Shown here in pieces: positions 11,004-20,309 of a stretch of DNA of 64,000 nt (the first letter of the stretch is position 1; every line of letters begins with the position of its first letter). A program made the translations under genes and the position numbers. Origin of the DNA: Sulfuricurvum sp. PD_MW2. GTDB taxonomy: Bacteria; Campylobacterota; Campylobacteria; Campylobacterales; Sulfurimonadaceae. The notes under the pieces are model-generated. The model worked only from the letters and a program-made list of their open reading frames with translations. It was not told the DNA's origin and did not search any database. The DNA lies in contig NZ_NSIU01000011.1 in assembly GCF_002633015.1 (NCBI RefSeq), positions 5,184 through 69,183 on the forward strand. Direction: 5' to 3'.

Positions 11004-12479
11004 ATGATTTTCACTATGATACAGTTATCTCCCGAAGCACGGCTCACTATTATTCTCCCGAACACCAATAAAGCCCTCTCGGAGGTGATCAAAAATGCTA
11101 CCCCAGAGCAACTCGAAACGCTCAAAGAGGGAAAAGATATCAAATCGCTTCTCACCTCGGCATTTCAAGATAAAACGACCGCTTCCAAATCCGATCAAAC
11201 GTTGCTTGACCTGCTCAAAAATTCTTCTTCTTTTAAAAATATAGGAAATTTCAGCGATTCACTTCAATCGCTTCTCAAAGAGATGAAAACTTCTCCGGAG
11301 ATGGCTCCAAAAGTACCCGTTTTAGAGAATTTTTTGAAAAACATGATCTCTCTCGACCCTCAAAATCTCAAAAAGCAGATCGCTTCGAGCGGTGTGTTTA
11401 TGGAATCTAAATTTGCCACTGCACTCAACAAAGTACCCGATCTGATTCAAAATCTCGAAACGCTCAAATCACTCCTCACGAAAATACCGACGAATGATGC
11501 CAAAGCTCTGCAAAACACTATCACCTCGTTGCTCACAAGCTCCATACTGCCATCCGCAAGCACGAATCCGCAAAGCGCACTCCAACTCACCGAGGGGGTC
11601 AAAAAAATTACCGAAATCCTCCAATCATTGATCACAAAAACTGATTCTCTGTATTCTAAAGAAGTGGCAGCACTAGCCATAAAACTCGATCAATCTTCTA
11701 CTCTTTCGGAGATCAAAAACACGTTATCGGAACTGTATGGAACGCTTCTCTCAAGCAAAGCACCCGATGCGAATTCGCTTCTTGATTCGATCGAAAAACT
11801 GCTTAAAACGCTAACTTCTACATCAACAAATGAACTTTCTACTTTTAGCGATGAACTCAAAAGTGCGATTGAGAGCAACAGCACCAAAGAGATAATAACA
11901 ATCAAAACAAAATTAAGTGAATTCACAAATCCCAAAGAACTGCACACAGAGACTTTTATCAAAGAGGCAATGGAGAGTGATCTCAAATCCCATCTCCTCT
12001 CTTTGCACGAAGAGTTAAGTCAATCAACTGATCCAAGTGGACCCAAACTTCTGGAACAGGCTGATAAACTCCTCACTCAAATTGACTATCATCAACTTCT
12101 TTCCCATTTAAGTTCATCCAACTCGATCTATTTTCCGTTTGTATGGGATCAGCTAGAGGGAGGATCTTTAGCGTTCAAAAAGGGCAAAGAGAAAAAATTT
12201 TATTGTGAAATCAATCTCAAACTCAAAGAGTACGGAGAACTCGATCTCATGATGGGATTGTATGATGAAACACAATTGGAGATCCAAGCCCATACTGAGA
12301 AAAGTGCTCTAAAAGCTCTGATTCAAGACAACATTGCCAATCTTCGATCTTTGCTTATTCAAGCGGGACTAACTCCACGATCTATTCGTGTTTTTGAGAG
12401 AAGCGAAGCCCATACACCGCTTCAAGAAAGCTATCACCCATCGGAAGGCTCAGATATGGGATTTGAGGTAAAAGTATGA
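11004..12479 (+). CDS. FliK-like flagellar hook-length control family protein
   Basis: Low-complexity Ser/Thr/Leu-rich body; FliK_C-like end (FYCEINLKLKEYGELDLMMGL); overlaps a FlhB-like gene; alternative start 11016. Confidence 0.6.
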   Translation: MIFTMIQLSPEARLTIILPNTNKALSEVIKNATPEQLETLKEGKDIKSLLTSAFQDKTTASKSDQTLLDLLKNSSSFKNIGNFSDSLQSLLKEMKTSPEMAPKVPVLENFLKNMISLDPQNLKKQIASSGVFMESKFATALNKVPDLIQNLETLKSLLTKIPTNDAKALQNTITSLLTSSILPSASTNPQSALQLTEGVKKITEILQSLITKTDSLYSKEVAALAIKLDQSSTLSEIKNTLSELYGTLLSSKAPDANSLLDSIEKLLKTLTSTSTNELSTFSDELKSAIESNSTKEIITIKTKLSEFTNPKELHTETFIKEAMESDLKSHLLSLHEELSQSTDPSGPKLLEQADKLLTQIDYHQLLSHLSSSNSIYFPFVWDQLEGGSLAFKKGKEKKFYCEINLKLKEYGELDLMMGLYDETQLEIQAHTEKSALKALIQDNIANLRSLLIQAGLTPRSIRVFERSEAHTPLQESYHPSEGSDMGFEVKV

Positions 12480-12724
12480 AAAAAGCGGTCGCACTCGGAT
12501 TTGATATTGAAAAAGACCGTGCTCCGCGTGTTGTAGCCAAAGGAAAAGGTGCAAGTGCGGAAAATATCATCAAAATCGCCCAACTCCACAATCTCCCTAT
12601 CAAAGAAGATGAAGATCTGGTAGAGCTCCTCAGCAAAGTAGAGCTAGATCGGGAAGTGCCCGAAAAACTCTACGTTGCGGTCGCCGAAGTGTTTAGTTTC
12701 ATTTACAAAATTACGAAGAAATAA
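12476..12724 (+). CDS. Stand-alone FlhB C-terminal-like (EscU/YscU family) protein
   Basis: KKAVAL...APRVVAKGKG...EIPEKLYVAVAEVF-type pattern (EVPEKLYVAVAEVF here). Confidence 0.88.
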   Translation: MKKAVALGFDIEKDRAPRVVAKGKGASAENIIKIAQLHNLPIKEDEDLVELLSKVELDREVPEKLYVAVAEVFSFIYKITKK

Positions 12725-12728
12725 ATCT

Positions 12729-14120
12729 CTATTGTGAAAACTTGATCCCCATGTTGTAGGTTGAAAACGGTATCGCACGATCAGGCTCAATCATAAAATT
12801 ACACTCGCGTTTAATATTCGTCGCATCAAAGTTATAGATATCCGAAAACTCCATGATAACAATGCGATAGACATTTTCATACCCCATGTCCGAGGGGGCT
12901 AAAAATGATGGCCAACAGCAAAAGAGCTTTTGTTTGATCTTGTCTTTGAGTATCCCCTCTCCCATCGCCGTATCGAGGCTCACCGTCTCGATAATCGTTT
13001 TGACAAATGCTCTATCTTGCTCAAACGCTACTGTTCCGACATGCGATGTGACGATCTCTTTGGGTATTTTTCCCGTGACGGGAAACAACTCGGCATATCC
13101 ATCTTTCATCTGTTTCGCCGCATAGCCAACCCCTATTTTATGCGGATCGCACGGTAGAGGGATCATATCCTCTCCGGTGAACGGATTGCGCGCATCGTCG
13201 ATGATACGGGAACGTATCTCCGAGAGGGTAATACGAAAATCATCGGCTGCATCAATCCGTCCCGCTTCCTGAACGGGTTGAAAGACCACACCGCGTACAC
13301 ATCGATAGCGACGTGAAAAATCAATAATATCAGGGATTTCGTGATCGTTGACCCCTTTTTTGATGACACACACCAATGTTGTCGAAATACTATATTTTTC
13401 AAGCAACTCCAACGCTTTGAGACGGATGGAGCGCATATCTCTGGCCCGAATATCGCGAAGTGCTGCCTCTTGCAACGAATCAAACTGCAAATAGACTTCA
13501 AACCCGCCGCCGAGCGATTTGAGTTCTTTGACAAACGCTTCCTCTTCGGAAATACGAATACCATTGGTGTTGAGCATCAAATGGCGAACGGGAGATTTCT
13601 TGAGAGTACGTAAAATCTCCATAATCTGCGGATGAGTTGTCGGCTCTCCCCCCGTCACCTGTATCAAATCAGGCTGGCTCTCGACTCTCAGCAGTGTGGC
13701 GAGCATCTGCTCGATCTGCTCCATAGAACGATGATTTCCCGCCCCAGGATAAGAGGAGAAATAGCAGATATTGCATTTCATATTGCACTCATCGGTGATG
13801 TTGAAAAGAGCGAGACACGGATGATTCTGATGCTGAGGACACACACCGCAATCGAACGGACAGCCGCGTAGTACCTGAGTATTCGATGTTTCGGGAAGAT
13901 CGGGCGCTTTGAGGTAGCTATCACACGTTTTGAAATACTCATAGTCATCCGAGATTTTCACCATCGATTCACCGCATTTCGGACAAAATTTGCGTAAAAA
14001 CACCTCATTGTCTTTCGCAACGATATGGGTATCGATAAGTTTGGTCAAATTGCTGCATTGATGGCAAAAACTCTGCGTAGCATTGAGATATAAATCGTAG
14101 GTTTTAGAGTAGTGAGCCAT
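12729..14120 (-). CDS. Radical SAM protein, Tes/GDGT-MAS (MJ0619)-like family
   Basis: CHQC...CPKC, CPFDCGVCPQH, CNMKCNIC (CxxxCxxC), TGGEPT, MLNTNG, IPFSTYN; start placed at MAHYSK (14120) rather than the track's 14180. Confidence 0.85.
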   Translation of the reverse strand: MAHYSKTYDLYLNATQSFCHQCSNLTKLIDTHIVAKDNEVFLRKFCPKCGESMVKISDDYEYFKTCDSYLKAPDLPETSNTQVLRGCPFDCGVCPQHQNHPCLALFNITDECNMKCNICYFSSYPGAGNHRSMEQIEQMLATLLRVESQPDLIQVTGGEPTTHPQIMEILRTLKKSPVRHLMLNTNGIRISEEEAFVKELKSLGGGFEVYLQFDSLQEAALRDIRARDMRSIRLKALELLEKYSISTTLVCVIKKGVNDHEIPDIIDFSRRYRCVRGVVFQPVQEAGRIDAADDFRITLSEIRSRIIDDARNPFTGEDMIPLPCDPHKIGVGYAAKQMKDGYAELFPVTGKIPKEIVTSHVGTVAFEQDRAFVKTIIETVSLDTAMGEGILKDKIKQKLFCCWPSFLAPSDMGYENVYRIVIMEFSDIYNFDATNIKRECNFMIEPDRAIPFSTYNMGIKFSQ

Positions 14121-14124
14121 AAAA

Positions 14125-14757
14125 TCAATGCCCGCTTGTTGCAATGACAACAGGGATAAAAATAGCCATTCCAACGACAAACATCACGCCATCTGCCGCT
14201 ACTGCGATCGGTGTTCCCAAAATTTTTACCACTACCGGAGATCCCTCTTTTTTAACCTCATTTACGGTTATGTAAATCTCTTTTGAAAGCTGTTGAGCCT
14301 TCTCATTGACATAACGGTCTGAAAAATAGCGTTTGCCCTTGAGCGAGATAGGGATGGTATACACTTTTGTTTTTGGGTTCAACGATACATGATTATCATT
14401 AATCCACTCTTGCAGTTCTTGATCGATAGTTTTCGAATCAATTGTTACACTAAAGCGTGCATTGAGCGTATCATTTTCAGCTTGGAAACGGGCACCTTGC
14501 GATACGTTGAATGTTATAGAAGCGTTTTCTCTATGCTTTAAGAGATAACCGAATTGAGGATTGGCATCAAAAATGTAGTGATATTTTTTTCCTAAAAAAA
14601 TGGTCTCATCATTTTTTGCATTTAATAAAAAAGCATCAATCGTTTCACTATAAGGCGTATACGTTACCTTATCTTCCCACAACTGACTTGTCATGCACCC
14701 CATTGACATAAAACTCACCATCGCAATCACCAATGTGACCCAAAATGTTTTTTTCAT
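14125..14757 (-). CDS. Putative lipoprotein with hydrophobic C-terminal segment
   Basis: MKK, hydrophobic stretch, SMGC; C-terminal ILGTPIAVAADGVMFVVGMAIFIPVVI; ATG at 14757 overlaps the upstream stop (ATGA). Confidence 0.7.
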   Translation of the reverse strand: MKKTFWVTLVIAMVSFMSMGCMTSQLWEDKVTYTPYSETIDAFLLNAKNDETIFLGKKYHYIFDANPQFGYLLKHRENASITFNVSQGARFQAENDTLNARFSVTIDSKTIDQELQEWINDNHVSLNPKTKVYTIPISLKGKRYFSDRYVNEKAQQLSKEIYITVNEVKKEGSPVVVKILGTPIAVAADGVMFVVGMAIFIPVVIATSGH

Positions 14758-15446
14758 TCCCGTGTACTTTCTGATTTGAGATAGATAAGCGCATACATCA
14801 TCAGTATGAGGCACAGTATTTGAAACAAAGTAAGACCGAAGAGGACTTTTTCATACGGTTTTAAAAACTCCCATACAAAGCGCTGTAGAGAATAATACCC
14901 TATAAATTGATAAAAAATAGTGTGTTCGAATGTTTTTTTACGGTAATAAAACATCCATACGGAATAGAGAAAAAACAACCCCAGTGCGACACTCTCATAG
15001 AGCTGTACGGGGTGTCTAAAAATGCCGTCTCCAAAATCGTGTCCGAGAATACTCGACGTCTCTATCCCATATGTATAATCGTCAATCCCTGATAGATAAC
15101 ATCCGATGCGACCGATAGCGATCCCAATAGCCAATGAAGGTACAAAATAGGCTCCCGTTGAGCCTTTGATATTTGCAGCTTTTTTGAAGAGTTCTGCGGC
15201 AATCACTCCCCCGAATAGAGAACCTAAGACCGATTTTCCGATCACTAGTGCACCGGTGGAGAGATAGGCATTCCATGTCCCGAAAGTAAATCCACCGAAT
15301 ACAAATCCAAAAAGCAATGAGGTGTAATAGCCGTATCGAAGAGTCTCATTTTCGATGTGCTGTGACTCAGAACGAATCCATTTCCATGAGATTAACAGTG
15401 CAACTGCATACGAGAGAAGATCAAAAAAAAGATGAATTTTCATCAA
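14754..15446 (-). CDS. Divergent prolipoprotein diacylglyceryl transferase (Lgt) family protein
   Basis: Multi-TM; IGRIGCYLSG, YG..T, RHPVQLYE, RFVWEFLK; KSVLGSLFGG in place of the canonical FHGG. Confidence 0.82.
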   Translation of the reverse strand: MMKIHLFFDLLSYAVALLISWKWIRSESQHIENETLRYGYYTSLLFGFVFGGFTFGTWNAYLSTGALVIGKSVLGSLFGGVIAAELFKKAANIKGSTGAYFVPSLAIGIAIGRIGCYLSGIDDYTYGIETSSILGHDFGDGIFRHPVQLYESVALGLFFLYSVWMFYYRKKTFEHTIFYQFIGYYSLQRFVWEFLKPYEKVLFGLTLFQILCLILMMYALIYLKSESTRE

Positions 15447-15757: not shown

Positions 15758-16063
15758 TTATACGATTGGCGCCCGATCTATCAGAGAAAGCGGTTCGTTA
15801 ATATCAAATATTTTGGCATTGATCGGCGAAATACCAAAACTGTTCAAACGCTCCGTATGCATTTGCAAGTAGGCCATTGCTGATGCTTCATCCTCAAAAA
15901 GATAAATCCCTCCAGCTTCTTTGGTGGCAGCATTTTCAGTCCATATTTTCCAGATCAACCCTTTTTCTTGTGCAATGCTCTCCGCTAGCGGAGCAAATGC
16001 TTCACTCATCGCTTCACCAAAAGGACCGTCCATTATAAAATCGATTTGTAACAGTTTTTTCAT
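15758..16063 (-). CDS. ydhR: YdhR family putative monooxygenase (dimeric alpha/beta barrel)
   Basis: LLQIDF..GPFG, GLIWKIWTEN, EAGGIYLF, YLQMHTERL. Confidence 0.85.
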   Translation of the reverse strand: MKKLLQIDFIMDGPFGEAMSEAFAPLAESIAQEKGLIWKIWTENAATKEAGGIYLFEDEASAMAYLQMHTERLNSFGISPINAKIFDINEPLSLIDRAPIV

Positions 16064-16086: not shown

Positions 16087-17463
16087 TTAATTATCACTGA
16101 ACCGACGACGAATATCAAAAAATTCATCAGCATTGTCAATCATGATATCGACCAATGAAGGGTCAAATTGTACCCCTTTTTGCTCATGGAAATACTCTAA
16201 TATTTGTTCCCTATTCCATGCTTTTTTATAGACACGTTCCGTTCCCAATGCATCAAATACATCGGCAATCGATGTAATGCGGCCGTAAATATGGATCTCT
16301 TCTCCCGCCAATGATCGTGGATACCCCGTTCCATCCCATTTTTCATGATGTTCATGCGCAACGATAGCAGCCGCTTGGATCAAAGGACGTTTTGAATTTT
16401 TCAAAATTTCCCATCCGATATGCGCATGATTTTTCATGATTTCATACTCTTCTTCAGTCAGTTTTCCGGCTTTATGCAAAATAGCATCCGGTATACCTAC
16501 TTTGCCCACATCGTGCAACGGTGCGATGCTCCATATCTCTTCTTGTTCTGTGGCACTCAACCCTTTATATTTAGCCAGCAACTTCGCATATTCGGCTACA
16601 CGGCGAACGTGCATTGCCGTCTCTTTGGAACGGCTTTCAACCGCAAAGCCCAAAATCAACAGCAATTCTTGTTGTGTCTCTTGTACCTCTTGCGTCAATG
16701 ATACAATCGGGGTAATGTCTTGTCGAATACTGATATATTCAATGACGTTTCCATGTGCATCATAAATTGGAGAGATAAAGGAGCTAACAACGTACATATC
16801 CCCATTTTTTTTACGATTTTTTACAATCCCATTCCACATTTTATGATGGGTGATCGTCCCCCAAAGATCTTTGAAAACATCGCTTTGTACATCAGGATGA
16901 CGTACAATATTATGAGGTTGCCCGATCAGCTCTTCGCGTGTATATCCGCTAATTTCACAGAATTTGTCATTTACATAGGTTATTTTTCCGAATAGATTTG
17001 TCTTGGAAACGATAGAACTGGCATCAACAATATCTTTATATTGCCGAAGAAGTTCTTTGTTTTCACTCAAATCCGCTTGAAGCGCTTTTTGACTCATTGC
17101 TAGTTTTAATTGCGTTTTGACGCGAGACTGAAGTTCCCGTCCTAAAAACGGTTTGGTAATATAATCGCTGGCACCGGCATCAAATGCTTCAATGATCGTG
17201 TTTTCATCCGTTTTTGCCGTTAGAAAAATAATCGGTATCTCATGGAGACGAGCGTCCGTTTTCATTTCTTGACACACTTCCAAACCGCTCATATCAGGCA
17301 TCATCATATCCAGAAGTACCAAACTCACATCATTGTCTCGCAACCTCTCCAGTGCTTGAATCCCACCTGTAGCATACAAGATATGGATATTCTCTAACTC
17401 TTTTAGGACATTAGAAGCAACCTGAATATTGCGGGGTTCATCATCGGCAATCAAAACTATCAT
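16087..17463 (-). CDS. REC-PAS-HD-GYP response regulator phosphodiesterase
   Basis: LIADDE, LDMMMP, PAS, HVRRV...LHDVGK...HHEKWDGTGYP; start at the ATGA overlap (17463). Confidence 0.92.
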   Translation of the reverse strand: MIVLIADDEPRNIQVASNVLKELENIHILYATGGIQALERLRDNDVSLVLLDMMMPDMSGLEVCQEMKTDARLHEIPIIFLTAKTDENTIIEAFDAGASDYITKPFLGRELQSRVKTQLKLAMSQKALQADLSENKELLRQYKDIVDASSIVSKTNLFGKITYVNDKFCEISGYTREELIGQPHNIVRHPDVQSDVFKDLWGTITHHKMWNGIVKNRKKNGDMYVVSSFISPIYDAHGNVIEYISIRQDITPIVSLTQEVQETQQELLLILGFAVESRSKETAMHVRRVAEYAKLLAKYKGLSATEQEEIWSIAPLHDVGKVGIPDAILHKAGKLTEEEYEIMKNHAHIGWEILKNSKRPLIQAAAIVAHEHHEKWDGTGYPRSLAGEEIHIYGRITSIADVFDALGTERVYKKAWNREQILEYFHEQKGVQFDPSLVDIMIDNADEFFDIRRRFSDN

Positions 17464-19625
17464 TTTGTTTTCCATAGATTCCTCCATGCTTCAATGAGTG
17501 TTGCAAAATTTCTTAACTGTGTCTCAACCTGATCGATTTCAAATCCCTCTGCTCCTATCCGCAATCGCTCACCCCACTCGATCAGCGGTGCGAATTGATA
17601 ATTTTTTCCATTATCTATTACTGCCACGGCGAACGATCCGATCGCCATCATATCCCCTTGTTTTAAAAGCTCTTGGGACTCGCTCAAAAGTTCATCGAAC
17701 AATTTTCCTAAAACCTCTACCGTTGCATCGTCGATGATTGTTTCGGTAGATATTTTCGGGGCAGGTGTTACTGAGCTAAAAGGCAAATGTTTTTTCAATG
17801 TTGCAATGAGGATAGAGCGGTTTAACGGTTTTTCTAACACACCGTTAAACTGTTGTTCAAGCTTATGCAAATCATGTTTCATAACCGAAGCAGTCACAGC
17901 AATGAGAGGAAGATCAGACATATTCAAATCGTTTCGGATAGCATGAAGTGCTTCGAAGCCATTCATAACAGGCATACGAATATCCATCAAAACCAAATCA
18001 ATTCCTCCTTTGGCAACTTCATCCACAGCAATTTTTCCATTCTCTGCTTCGATAAAGGTAAATGGGTATCCTTTGAGGGTTTCAATCATTAAGAAGCGGT
18101 TTTCTTTGATATCATCAACAACCAATATCGTGGCAGGTTCAAAAAGGGTATTCTCTTCTACCAACAGATCTTCAGAGACAAAAATAGGCTGACTGACCTC
18201 AATATTGTCGATCATCAGAGTAAATGTAGAGCCTTTTTCAGGGATACTCTCAACGCTCAATTCTCCACCCATTAAATGGGCTAATTTACGACATATTGCC
18301 AGACCCAGACCCGTTCCTCCGTATTGACGGGTATCTTGTCCCTCTTGTTGAATAAACGACTCAAAAATTTTAGCTTGATCTTTGAGCGGAATGCCTATCC
18401 CTGTATCTTTTACAATACACACAAGAGTGATATCCCCGCTATCATGAATAGATCCTTGTTCAATCTTTATGCTTACTTGCCCGTTTTGAGTGAATTTTAA
18501 TGCGTTTGAAATCAAATTAAATAAAATTTGACGGATGTGTATTTCATCTATTATCACATAATTCGGAACGTCTTTGGCTATTTCTGAAACCAAAACAATC
18601 CCTTTTTTGTTGGCTATTTGGGTAAACATCGATGTGATGTCTCGGATAAATACATCAAGAGATACAGGATGATATTCCAGTTTCATATGCCCTGCTTCAA
18701 TTTTTGAGAGATCCAAAATATCATTGATCAGCAGCAGCAAATTTTTTCCGCCATTTTTTATCGCTTCCAAATAGCCTCGATGTTTAGGATTCTCCACCTC
18801 ATTTTCCAAGAGATCCGAAAACCCGATTACGGCATTAAGCGGTGTACGGATTTCATGAGACATATTGGCCAAAAATTCCGATTTTAGCCGATTTGCCGAC
18901 TCTGCTTCAATTTTTGCATGTTCGAGTTGAGACGTCAATACTTTTTGTTCATCCAACGCACTAACTATCTGTGCGGTACGCTGTTGTACCATATCATCGA
19001 GACGTTCATTAATAGTGATCAATTCTTCATTGGAACTGCTCGTCTCTTTTTGCAAATTGATCATTGTCACAAATTGACGGCGGAGATTTCGTATGATGAA
19101 GTAGAGCACTATCGTCTCTGCCGCGACCATAACCCCATGCAAAATAACATACTCAATTCCACACCCATAACTAAAAATCATAATCGGATCACCAAAAAAT
19201 ATATAGTGAGAAAACTGAAGGTAGTTAAACAAAAAATGGTGTGCTACAACGGCGAATGCTGCTGTAAGCAAGGGAAGGATATCTTTATACACCGTCAATA
19301 TGGCCAAACCGATAAATACATGAAAATGCATCTCGATACGCCCGAGATGCTGCTGAATGTACAATGCACTGAAAATAACAATCGCCAATGCGGCAATCAT
19401 TCGAAAGTAAATGGTCCCCTTCAAATATCGATAGCCGATGAATACATTCAGCATGACTGCACTACCAATAAAAAGCCCCAGTCCAAACGTCCCGTAATAC
19501 AATGACGTAATGAAAATCCCTATCAGTGCATGTCCGATCAATATCCAAAGCATATAACGATCAGCGTTTAAAAAATCCTCATTTAATGCGGCATTCATAT
19601 CGTTTATTTTCGCAAGTTGTTTCAT
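17460..19625 (-). CDS. Hybrid histidine kinase with His-rich multi-TM sensor
   Basis: TM region with GHAL, IEMHFHVF, AHHF, LHG; FLANMSHEIRTPL; HATPase; REC DIRMP. Confidence 0.9.
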   Translation of the reverse strand: MKQLAKINDMNAALNEDFLNADRYMLWILIGHALIGIFITSLYYGTFGLGLFIGSAVMLNVFIGYRYLKGTIYFRMIAALAIVIFSALYIQQHLGRIEMHFHVFIGLAILTVYKDILPLLTAAFAVVAHHFLFNYLQFSHYIFFGDPIMIFSYGCGIEYVILHGVMVAAETIVLYFIIRNLRRQFVTMINLQKETSSSNEELITINERLDDMVQQRTAQIVSALDEQKVLTSQLEHAKIEAESANRLKSEFLANMSHEIRTPLNAVIGFSDLLENEVENPKHRGYLEAIKNGGKNLLLLINDILDLSKIEAGHMKLEYHPVSLDVFIRDITSMFTQIANKKGIVLVSEIAKDVPNYVIIDEIHIRQILFNLISNALKFTQNGQVSIKIEQGSIHDSGDITLVCIVKDTGIGIPLKDQAKIFESFIQQEGQDTRQYGGTGLGLAICRKLAHLMGGELSVESIPEKGSTFTLMIDNIEVSQPIFVSEDLLVEENTLFEPATILVVDDIKENRFLMIETLKGYPFTFIEAENGKIAVDEVAKGGIDLVLMDIRMPVMNGFEALHAIRNDLNMSDLPLIAVTASVMKHDLHKLEQQFNGVLEKPLNRSILIATLKKHLPFSSVTPAPKISTETIIDDATVEVLGKLFDELLSESQELLKQGDMMAIGSFAVAVIDNGKNYQFAPLIEWGERLRIGAEGFEIDQVETQLRNFATLIEAWRNLWKTK

Positions 19626-20182
19626 TACTGAACCTTTTGTAAATCAATCATAATTTGCTTGATAGGATAAGGGTGTGTGGCATAAATATTTTTTAAAACA
19701 TATCCCGAAGGTCTCTTTACGAACATAAACAAACTTGAGGTATGCCCCATTTCATTCTCTCTGCCCGTAATCGCGAGATTGTAGGCTCGAGAGAGCTCCT
19801 CAATCTGTTGTTGTGTTGCATAAACTCCCTGAAATTCCTCATTAAAAGCTTTTGCGAAGATATCAGGCCCATCGCTGGACTGGGTGGGATCCAAATTGAC
19901 AAAATACAATTTTAATCTTGGTTCAACATCCTTCAAATTTCGATATGCACTCGAAATTTCTTCCAATGATGGGGTACAAATTTTTGCACACCCGACGTAT
20001 CCGAAATAGACAAAAACGATATGAGAATTTTCATTTTGCAAAAAGAAAGGGGAAATCGTATTATTTTCAAACGCCGTTCCTCGGGAGTTTCCTGAGAAAA
20101 ACGTCCCTAAAAAAGGAAACACAAAGAGAAGTGAAAGCATAAAAGTAATCAAAGAAATACCAACGATCTGCTTTTTCACCAT
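19625..20182 (-). CDS. SCO1/SenC family copper chaperone/thiol oxidoreductase
   Basis: N-terminal TM, YFGYVGCAKIC (CxxxC), FVNLDP, GHTSSL; TAATG overlap with the kinase. Confidence 0.88.
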   Translation of the reverse strand: MVKKQIVGISLITFMLSLLFVFPFLGTFFSGNSRGTAFENNTISPFFLQNENSHIVFVYFGYVGCAKICTPSLEEISSAYRNLKDVEPRLKLYFVNLDPTQSSDGPDIFAKAFNEEFQGVYATQQQIEELSRAYNLAITGRENEMGHTSSLFMFVKRPSGYVLKNIYATHPYPIKQIMIDLQKVQ

Positions 20183-20309
20183 ACATTCCTCTTCAAATCA
20201 AAAAATTCACACATATTCAAATCTTTCTATTTTATACCATAAAACATATAGGGTTATGCTAAGATGATATTTCAGTCATTTTGACACTCCATTCACTCAG
20301 GGAAAAAGG

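Follow-up and report, generated by a model that had tools for sequence, protein, structure and literature searches.

The window analysed here, a stretch of 64,000 nucleotides (nt) from a contig of Sulfuricurvum sp. PD_MW2 (genome of 2.26 Mb, with its closest named homologues in Sulfuricurvum; S. kujiense DSM 16994 and an Aliarcobacter strain are among the carriers of homologues), carries at positions 16087-20182 three overlapping open reading frames (ORFs), all on the minus strand, that encode an SCO-like protein, a hybrid sensor histidine kinase and a REC-PAS-HD-GYP response regulator (Table 1). The pairing of this SCO-like protein with the membrane domain of the kinase is the subject of the present work. 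A preliminary description made from the sequence had placed the three genes in series and reported that the start codon of the kinase and the stop codon of the SCO gene have one base in common (TAATG), all of which can be read in the DNA. The ATGA overlap that it proposed between kinase and regulator is also present (ATG at 17463, TGA at 17462-17460), but the best ribosome-binding site, GGAGGA with a 5-nt spacer, precedes a different one of the three candidate starts (17487, 17475 and 17463), so that a start at 17475 is at least as likely, in which case the genes would overlap by 16 nt instead of 4. The SCO gene is preceded by a ribosome-binding site, GAGGAA, 4 nt ahead of its ATG, and the overlaps suggest that the three genes are co-transcribed. 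From the gene layout, their promoter is presumed to lie in the upstream intergenic region, which is common to a divergent SDR/DUF2867 gene, and a scan for consensus promoters and terminators returned no more sites than in shuffled sequence. As had been noted, the window holds no cytochrome oxidase gene; the only two COX1 matches in the genome are located on other contigs.

The first protein belongs to the SCO1/SenC family (PF02630, 50 bits against a cut-off of 22.8), and Sco1 sequences in the PDB match it at E-values from 2.5e-8 to 5e-5. Its AlphaFold2 (AF2) model has a mean confidence (pLDDT) of 89.5 and retrieves Sco structures exclusively at Foldseek ranks 1-21 (TM-scores 0.5-0.65), and the predicted structure thereby confirms a thioredoxin-like Sco fold. 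No other SCO homologue is found in the source genome. The hydrophobic N-terminus is shared by 29/29 aligned SCO partners, and the only invariant columns in 29 diverse sensor-linked SCOs are G61, C65, C69, F113 and H147, which include both cysteines of the CxxxC motif and the third canonical copper ligand; in a larger set of 68 sensor-linked SCOs, 99% of the copies retain the two Cys and the His. Given that the His of Sco proteins is needed for metal binding and is dispensable for thiol exchange, its retention favours a metal-handling role. The protein shares the fold, the CxxxC and His ligands and a membrane-anchored extracytoplasmic location with canonical Sco proteins, such as human SCO1, BsSco of B. 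subtilis, Sco1 of T. thermophilus and Sco of S. lividans. It differs from them in belonging to a divergent subfamily, here called the short type, whose sensor-linked members align with PF02630 only over model positions ~20-132 and reach 25-58 bits, compared with 105-158 bits for the canonical copies in the same genomes.

The kinase begins with a domain of six transmembrane helices (6-TM domain) that has no family name. It gives no Pfam match even at E<=10 and none in NCBIfam, and its AF2 model, a six-helix bundle (pLDDT 80.9), finds no matching fold in the PDB with Foldseek (best E ~1, TM-score ~0.3). The source genome has one copy. A HMMER search of 1.84 billion representatives placed the domain in 1,685 clusters (50% identity) at E<=1e-3 and in 486 at E<=1e-10. 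Among the 150 best representatives, it is always N-terminal, starting within the first ~47 residues of proteins of 140-1,400 aa, and no natural fusion to an SCO domain occurs. The outputs attached to it in 84 diverse members comprise methyl-accepting chemotaxis protein (MCP) domains (38), HisKA/HATPase (22), GGDEF (6), EAL (4), SpoIIE (4) and HD-GYP (1). Judged from these sequences, the membrane region is a large modular sensor domain that is widespread and spans phyla.

The preliminary description had drawn attention to the many His residues of this region. All of them are present, namely H32 (GHAL), H93 (QQH), H100 and H102 (MHFH), H129 and H130 (AHH), H139 and H163 (LHG), and five (H100, H102, H129, H130 and H163) are conserved, whereas H32 and H139 are not among the conserved positions. 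Counted over 148 representatives of no more than 50% identity, G95 and H100 are kept in all 148, H130, H163 and Q137 in 147 each, E98 in 146, Y113 in 144, H102 in 138 and H129 in 135, followed by M99 (115), E170 (114) and C155 (89). Residues of metal-ligand type are consequently kept in both proteins of the pair. The distribution of charges predicts an N-in/C-in topology with six spans, in which each of these conserved residues would belong either to a periplasmic loop or to the outer-leaflet third of the membrane. The sixth helix (TM6), which carries H163 and E170, is one unbroken helix (residues 157-199) in the AF2 model and runs on into a cytoplasmic coiled coil leading to HisKA.

A pattern scan of 185,579 species genomes yielded 246 loci with the domain, the best 80 of which were fetched, 76 of them with enough upstream DNA. 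In 63 of the 76 loci, a same-strand SCO-like gene ends just upstream of the sensor; the SCO-like gene is divergent in three further loci and 3 kb downstream in one. The 80 loci come from a motif-based scan and lean to close relatives, a bias that is partly offset by seven distant representatives (31-33% identity to the window domain), of which six are immediately preceded by an SCO gene; among these six SCO genes, one is cut by the contig end, with its CxxxC and His still visible. Broken down by output, the pairing holds for 42/44 GGDEF-EAL proteins, 13/20 kinases and 7/9 MCPs, which is to say that it tracks the TM domain and not the output. The carriers of paired genes include Campylobacterota, sulfur-oxidising Gammaproteobacteria (Thiomargarita, Parabeggiatoa), bivalve symbionts, Aliifodinibius and a metagenome-assembled genome of the Spirochaetia. 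Because only 1-5 SCO homologues are present per genome (20 other genomes), chance adjacency would be expected at about one locus in a thousand, and the arrangement is far beyond chance. The preliminary description had let its proposal hang on whether sco and sensors of this kind occur together; the linkage proves to be conserved, and the SCO gene is a near-obligate partner of the sensor domain. No description of the pairing was found in the full-text literature searched.

The two partners have also diverged together. Pairwise identity matrices of SCO and TM domain correlate at r = 0.89 over 62 pairs, a value reached by 0/999 permutations. Paralogous pairs inside one genome are only ~30-37% identical, and whole cassettes must therefore have been duplicated long ago. 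In the 20 other genomes, ~23 of 30 sensor copies have an adjacent SCO of their own, the ratio being 1:1, 2:2 or 3:3 where all are paired, and in several Campylobacterota the sensor-linked SCOs are the only SCO homologues.

In 37 related loci (L059:4120-5343 and 36 others), the SCO gene is in turn immediately preceded by a same-strand ORF of ~400 aa. The product of this ORF resembles periplasmic binding proteins (PF04392 ABC_sub_bind, 37 bits); the ORF is absent from the window and suggests a three-protein version of the sensor.

Given that the source genome holds this one SCO homologue together with a ccoN gene, it may be asked whether the protein simply serves the assembly of a cbb3 oxidase and lies beside the kinase without functional meaning. 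We regard this as barely credible, and it is contradicted by the data for the genus. Among 37 genomes, 16 with the sensor and 21 without, the short-type SCO adjoins the sensor in 14/16 and is present in 0/21, whereas a ccoN-type gene is found in nearly all genomes with or without the short-type SCO, including 20 of the 21 without a sensor. On this phyletic profile, a role as cbb3 assembly factor was rejected, and no association of the short type with heme-copper oxidases was encountered, either genomic or phyletic. SCO copy number follows sensor copy number instead, and the linkage is conserved across phyla. The preliminary description had considered that its idea would fall if the SCO were tied to oxidase assembly only; the profile ties this SCO type to the sensor and not to oxidases.

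In some congeners and relatives (genomes G039, G040, G043, G048, G050, G058 and G064), an A-type COX1 (475-520 bits) has less than 1 kb away from it a separate SCO of a long type, with ORFs of 265-300 aa that score about 30-50 bits; oxidase-linked and sensor-linked SCOs are therefore separate lineages. Some members of this mostly cbb3-using group have thus acquired an aa3-type oxidase with an SCO of its own.

The two genomes in which the sensor has no adjacent SCO, G023 and G051, are closely related and represent one lineage that lost the SCO; their sensor is of the GGDEF-EAL kind. That of G051 is truncated to 144 aa (G051:C46:45-482, L086), and in G023 it is intact, with Gly at the position of C155 (G023:C33, L085). 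No remnant of an SCO pseudogene was found upstream of the G023 sensor.

On the output side, the matches to HisKA, HATPase_c and a C-terminal receiver domain (REC) identify the second protein as a hybrid histidine kinase. Its last ~110 residues (~611-721, positions 17463-17795) have no family match and contain a single His, H625, just past the receiver domain; on this sequence the segment cannot be a working histidine phosphotransfer (Hpt) domain. The regulator itself has intact HD-GYP motifs in translation (PLHDVGK for the HD, and HHEKWDGTGYP) and is of the RpfG-like class of cyclic di-GMP (c-di-GMP) phosphodiesterases. Its best NCBIfam match is the NosR-family response regulator c-di-GMP phosphodiesterase (170 bits, under the cut-off of 400 bits). 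The link to c-di-GMP drawn in the preliminary description is conserved as a gene association: a REC-PAS-HD-GYP or HD-GYP gene adjoins 11 of the 14 hybrid-kinase loci examined, and GGDEF-EAL is the commonest fused output among close relatives (44 in the 76-locus set).

We propose a two-protein sensor made up of the SCO-like protein and the kinase's 6-TM domain, in which SCO loads a copper site facing the periplasm, or remains bound to it, and in which a change of ligand or redox state at this site drives the kinase and the HD-GYP regulator. We put the chances of this proposal at about even. In such a sensor, SCO would be anchored in the inner membrane with its thioredoxin-fold, copper-binding domain (C65, C69, H147) in the periplasm, and would supply copper for a site within the outer-leaflet third of the helix bundle, where it may remain docked. 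The site could be formed by E98, M99, H100 and H102 at the junction of TM3 and TM4, by H129 and H130 in TM5, by Q137, and by H163 in TM6. Binding of a small ligand (O2, NO, CO or sulfide) to the copper centre, or its change of redox state, would shift TM6, and this movement, carried by the continuous helix into the coiled coil before HisKA, would alter autophosphorylation. The phosphoryl group would then reach the REC-PAS-HD-GYP protein directly or by way of an Hpt protein, and would set the rate of c-di-GMP hydrolysis. In this scheme we infer four things, namely that the metal is copper, the direction of its transfer, the nature of the signal and the route of phosphotransfer. HxH and HH pairs are found in CuB, multicopper oxidases and Cu,Zn superoxide dismutase. 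Conserved Glu, Met, HxH, HH and His at the side that faces SCO are a ligand set as in such copper centres, and for this reason a copper centre loaded by SCO or shared with it is ranked first. We also count in its favour that, after the loss of SCO, a single lineage shows one intact and one truncated sensor. The carriers live as sulfur oxidisers at oxic-anoxic interfaces, and MCPs dominate among the outputs, from which the signal may be O2, NO or sulfide.

Several points weigh against this proposal. Thirteen of the 76 loci have no same-strand SCO upstream, seven of them with none in the fetched DNA, and the G023 sensor is apparently intact in a genome that has no SCO match. That the His residues would converge on one point is deduced from the predicted topology, and judged by sequence a set of five His and a Glu could just as well bind iron, zinc or heme. 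The kinase showed no Hpt domain, also in its last 130 residues, where Pfam gives no match; this search did not extend to Hpt proteins encoded elsewhere in the genome. Finally, strict 1:1 pairing and translational coupling would be expected of a permanent co-sensor subunit no less than of a chaperone that binds transiently.

The last of these points leads to a different division of labour, in which SCO itself is the sensor and its copper occupancy, or the redox state of its cysteines, would reflect the redox or copper status of the periplasm and be relayed to the 6-TM domain by stable contact, the His cluster being structural or holding another cofactor. The 1:1 pairing of paralogues and the overlap of stop and start codons point to a stoichiometric complex, with which the co-divergence of SCO and sensor is in keeping, and there is a precedent in Rhodobacter sphaeroides, where the sco homologue prrC lies in the prrBCA locus and has been proposed to relay a signal from the cbb3 oxidase to the kinase PrrB. 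A relay of this kind leaves unexplained why the strongest conservation in the sensor falls on residues of metal-ligand type at the periplasmic face, and the SCO type described here, unlike PrrC, is uncorrelated with any oxidase. We consider it rather unlikely.

The PrrB/RegB-PrrC/SenC-PrrA/RegA systems of Rhodobacter, in which an SCO homologue is encoded with a multi-TM kinase and a regulator and is proposed to signal to the kinase, are nonetheless the closest precedent for an SCO gene beside a kinase. The TM domain of PrrB carries a quinone-site motif, GGxxNPF, and is unrelated to that of the window. Membership of the RegB/PrrB type was rejected for the present kinase, which has no NPF in residues 1-200 and no RegB-type family among the 25 best of 136 NCBIfam matches. 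PrrC also serves the assembly of cbb3 and aa3 oxidases, whereas the SCO type of the window is uncoupled from oxidases, and the output of the Rhodobacter system is transcription rather than c-di-GMP or taxis. SenC and PrrC are regarded as Sco-like chaperones (PMC7558416).

Another explanation would have the 6-TM domain bind heme through bis-His ligation, or a di-iron centre, with SCO acting as a thiol-disulfide reductase that keeps periplasmic cysteines or the cofactor site reduced. In number of ligands, five His (H100, H102, H129, H130, H163) plus E98 and E170 agree with a di-iron O2 carrier of the hemerythrin type, and four of the His could instead form two bis-His pairs. The thioredoxin fold of Sco would suit a reductase, and PrrC has been proposed to act as a thiol-disulfide oxidoreductase (McEwan et al., 2002, cited in PMC7558416). 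In the PDB search, however, the fold of the sensor model matched neither cytochrome b nor hemerythrin, and the SCO His, which thiol chemistry does not need, is almost universally kept. As a general mechanism, a thiol relay from SCO to a sensor cysteine was rejected: no more than 60% of the broad family retains C155, and 8 of the 62 SCO-linked sensors have no Cys at all on the periplasmic side. These findings make the explanation quite improbable.

The proposed copper-dependent signalling is also to be set apart from copper homeostasis, in which the supply of periplasmic copper would be measured through SCO and behaviour adjusted to it. SCO binds copper, and bacteria are reported to move away from copper by chemotaxis (PMC10579534). 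Genes for copper efflux or uptake do not recur around the cassette in the fetched loci, and the outputs are taxis and c-di-GMP rather than DNA-binding regulators. Copper sensors of the CusS/CopS type differ from the present one, in that they have periplasmic domains and adjoining efflux genes. A homeostatic role thus appears very doubtful.

Among sensors with a metal in the membrane, the MHYT domain, for example that of CoxC from Afipia carboxidovorans, needs copper for the sensing of CO and O2 (PMC11347149). Like the domain described here, MHYT (PF03707) is a six-helix membrane sensor with Met, His and Tyr near the periplasmic face, fused to kinase, GGDEF, EAL and other outputs, and it is the closest functional analogue. 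The two differ in that MHYT has three repeated motif helix pairs, compared with one M-H motif (M99-H100) in the window domain. Membership of MHYT was rejected, given that Pfam yields no match at E<=10 and that the PF03707 model finds nothing in 10 genomes carrying the domain. To our knowledge, MHYT has no dedicated SCO partner. Ethylene receptors of the ETR1 type, from plants and cyanobacteria, offer a second comparison, since they have a Cu(I) site in the membrane-embedded input domain of a histidine-kinase-type receptor and need copper to be delivered, much as is proposed here. Their input domain differs in having three TM helices and Cys/His ligands, and their copper comes by way of a P-type ATPase and cytosolic chaperones, not SCO. 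The Pfam scan (E<=10) detected no homology to the ETR1-type domain. We know of no signalling receptor that is a client of Sco. That Sco proteins can have clients other than oxidases is illustrated by Streptomyces (S. lividans), in which Sco metallates the cuproenzyme GlxA (PMC4736821).

Table 1. Positions in the window of the genes, domains and motifs of the SCO-sensor locus
Feature	Position	Strand	Basis
Upstream intergenic region, presumed promoter	20183..20309	-	Common to divergent SDR/DUF2867 gene
SCO1/SenC-like protein, 185 aa, sensor-linked short type	19625..20182	-	PF02630, PDB Sco1 matches, AF2/Foldseek
SCO N-terminal membrane anchor, residues 2-29	20096..20179	-	AF2 helix 2-29
SCO CxxxC motif, C65-A-K-I-C69	19976..19990	-	Codons read
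SCO H147 (the GH), third canonical copper ligand, codon CAT	19742..19744	-	Codon read
Hybrid sensor histidine kinase, 721 aa	17460..19625	-	HisKA, HATPase_c, REC matches
6-TM His-cluster sensor domain without family name, kinase residues 1-190, predicted N-in/C-in	19056..19625	-	AF2 helices, charge distribution
Core motif I90-QQHLGRIEMHFHVFIGLAILTVYKD-115, end of TM3 and TM4, with E98, M99, H100, H102	19281..19358	-	Conservation
H129-H130 pair in TM5	19236..19241	-	Conservation
H163 near outer end of TM6	19137..19139	-	Conservation
HisKA, residues 248-312, H-box SHEIRTPLN	18690..18884	-	PF00512, 75 bits
HATPase_c, residues 360-473	18207..18548	-	PF02518, 102 bits
Kinase receiver domain, residues 500-610	17796..18128	-	PF00072, 67 bits
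REC-PAS-HD-GYP response regulator	16087..17487	-	PF00072, PAS families, PF13487
Regulator REC	17119..17457	-	PF00072, 99 bits
Regulator PAS	16711..17013	-	PF08447 and PF13426
HD-GYP c-di-GMP phosphodiesterase domain	16153..16641	-	PF13487, 105 bits

The genes on either side do not appear to be part of the cassette. The flanking ydhR, 95-aa membrane protein, Lgt-like, radical SAM, SDR/DUF2867 and Cache-MCP genes were considered as members of the unit and rejected, none of them being conserved beside the cassette in the 80 loci; the MCP matches seen there reflect generic similarity of signalling domains. A YdhR-family putative monooxygenase (15758-16063; PF08803, 145 bits) is encoded on the same strand as the HD-GYP gene, only 23 nt past its end, and may be co-transcribed with it in this window, and it was found beside the cassette in 0/80 related loci. 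Further along, the minus-strand region 12729-15446 encodes a radical SAM protein with an HMPTM zinc ribbon (TrsS-like, 267 bits, and archaeal tetraether lipid synthase Tes-like, 231 bits, both under the cut-off), followed by a 229-aa membrane-anchored protein without family and an Lgt-like protein (PF01790). Judging by these matches, the group may be a lipid- or lipoprotein-modification cluster, which would be odd for a genome of the Campylobacterota. Region 11004-12724 holds a FliK-like hook-length protein (PF02120) and after it, with a 4-nt overlap, an 82-aa stand-alone protein consisting of the C-terminal domain of FlhB (PF01312 positions 262-335).

Comparative genomics agrees with the preliminary interpretation, in which SCO loads or redox-gates a metal or heme site of the sensor and so links copper or redox state to c-di-GMP breakdown, on every point that it can address, namely the conserved linkage, the oxidase-independent profile and the conserved c-di-GMP neighbours. 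The sequences indicate that SCO does not serve a respiratory oxidase here and is the near-obligate gene partner of the 6-TM domain, with which it probably makes up a new copper-dependent sensor of gas or redox state that controls c-di-GMP breakdown in this window. More broadly, and more tentatively, it is possible that the TM domain and its private SCO paralogue constitute a new receptor class spanning several phyla, in which a CuB-like or binuclear copper centre, built and perhaps retained by SCO at the outer face of the membrane, would sense O2, NO or sulfide for chemotaxis, two-component signalling and c-di-GMP control.

SCO proteins occur in many bacteria that have no oxidases for them to assemble, and the reason is a standing question (PMC7558416). 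The dedicated pairing of SCO and sensor is one concrete and testable answer to why oxidase-free bacteria hold SCO. It also adds a large family of membrane receptors without a database name, common in sulfur oxidisers at oxic-anoxic interfaces, that feeds chemotaxis, phosphorelays and c-di-GMP. The SCO and sensor genes are small, sometimes the sole SCO and the sole sensor copy of a genome, and should express easily, which makes the system amenable to biochemistry. If the metal is copper, this would be only the second type of bacterial membrane copper gas sensor after MHYT, and the first with an identified metallochaperone. Should the reading as a receptor class hold, the sensor would be the first signalling receptor shown to be a client of SCO, and would explain the presence of SCO in bacteria that do not need it for their oxidases.

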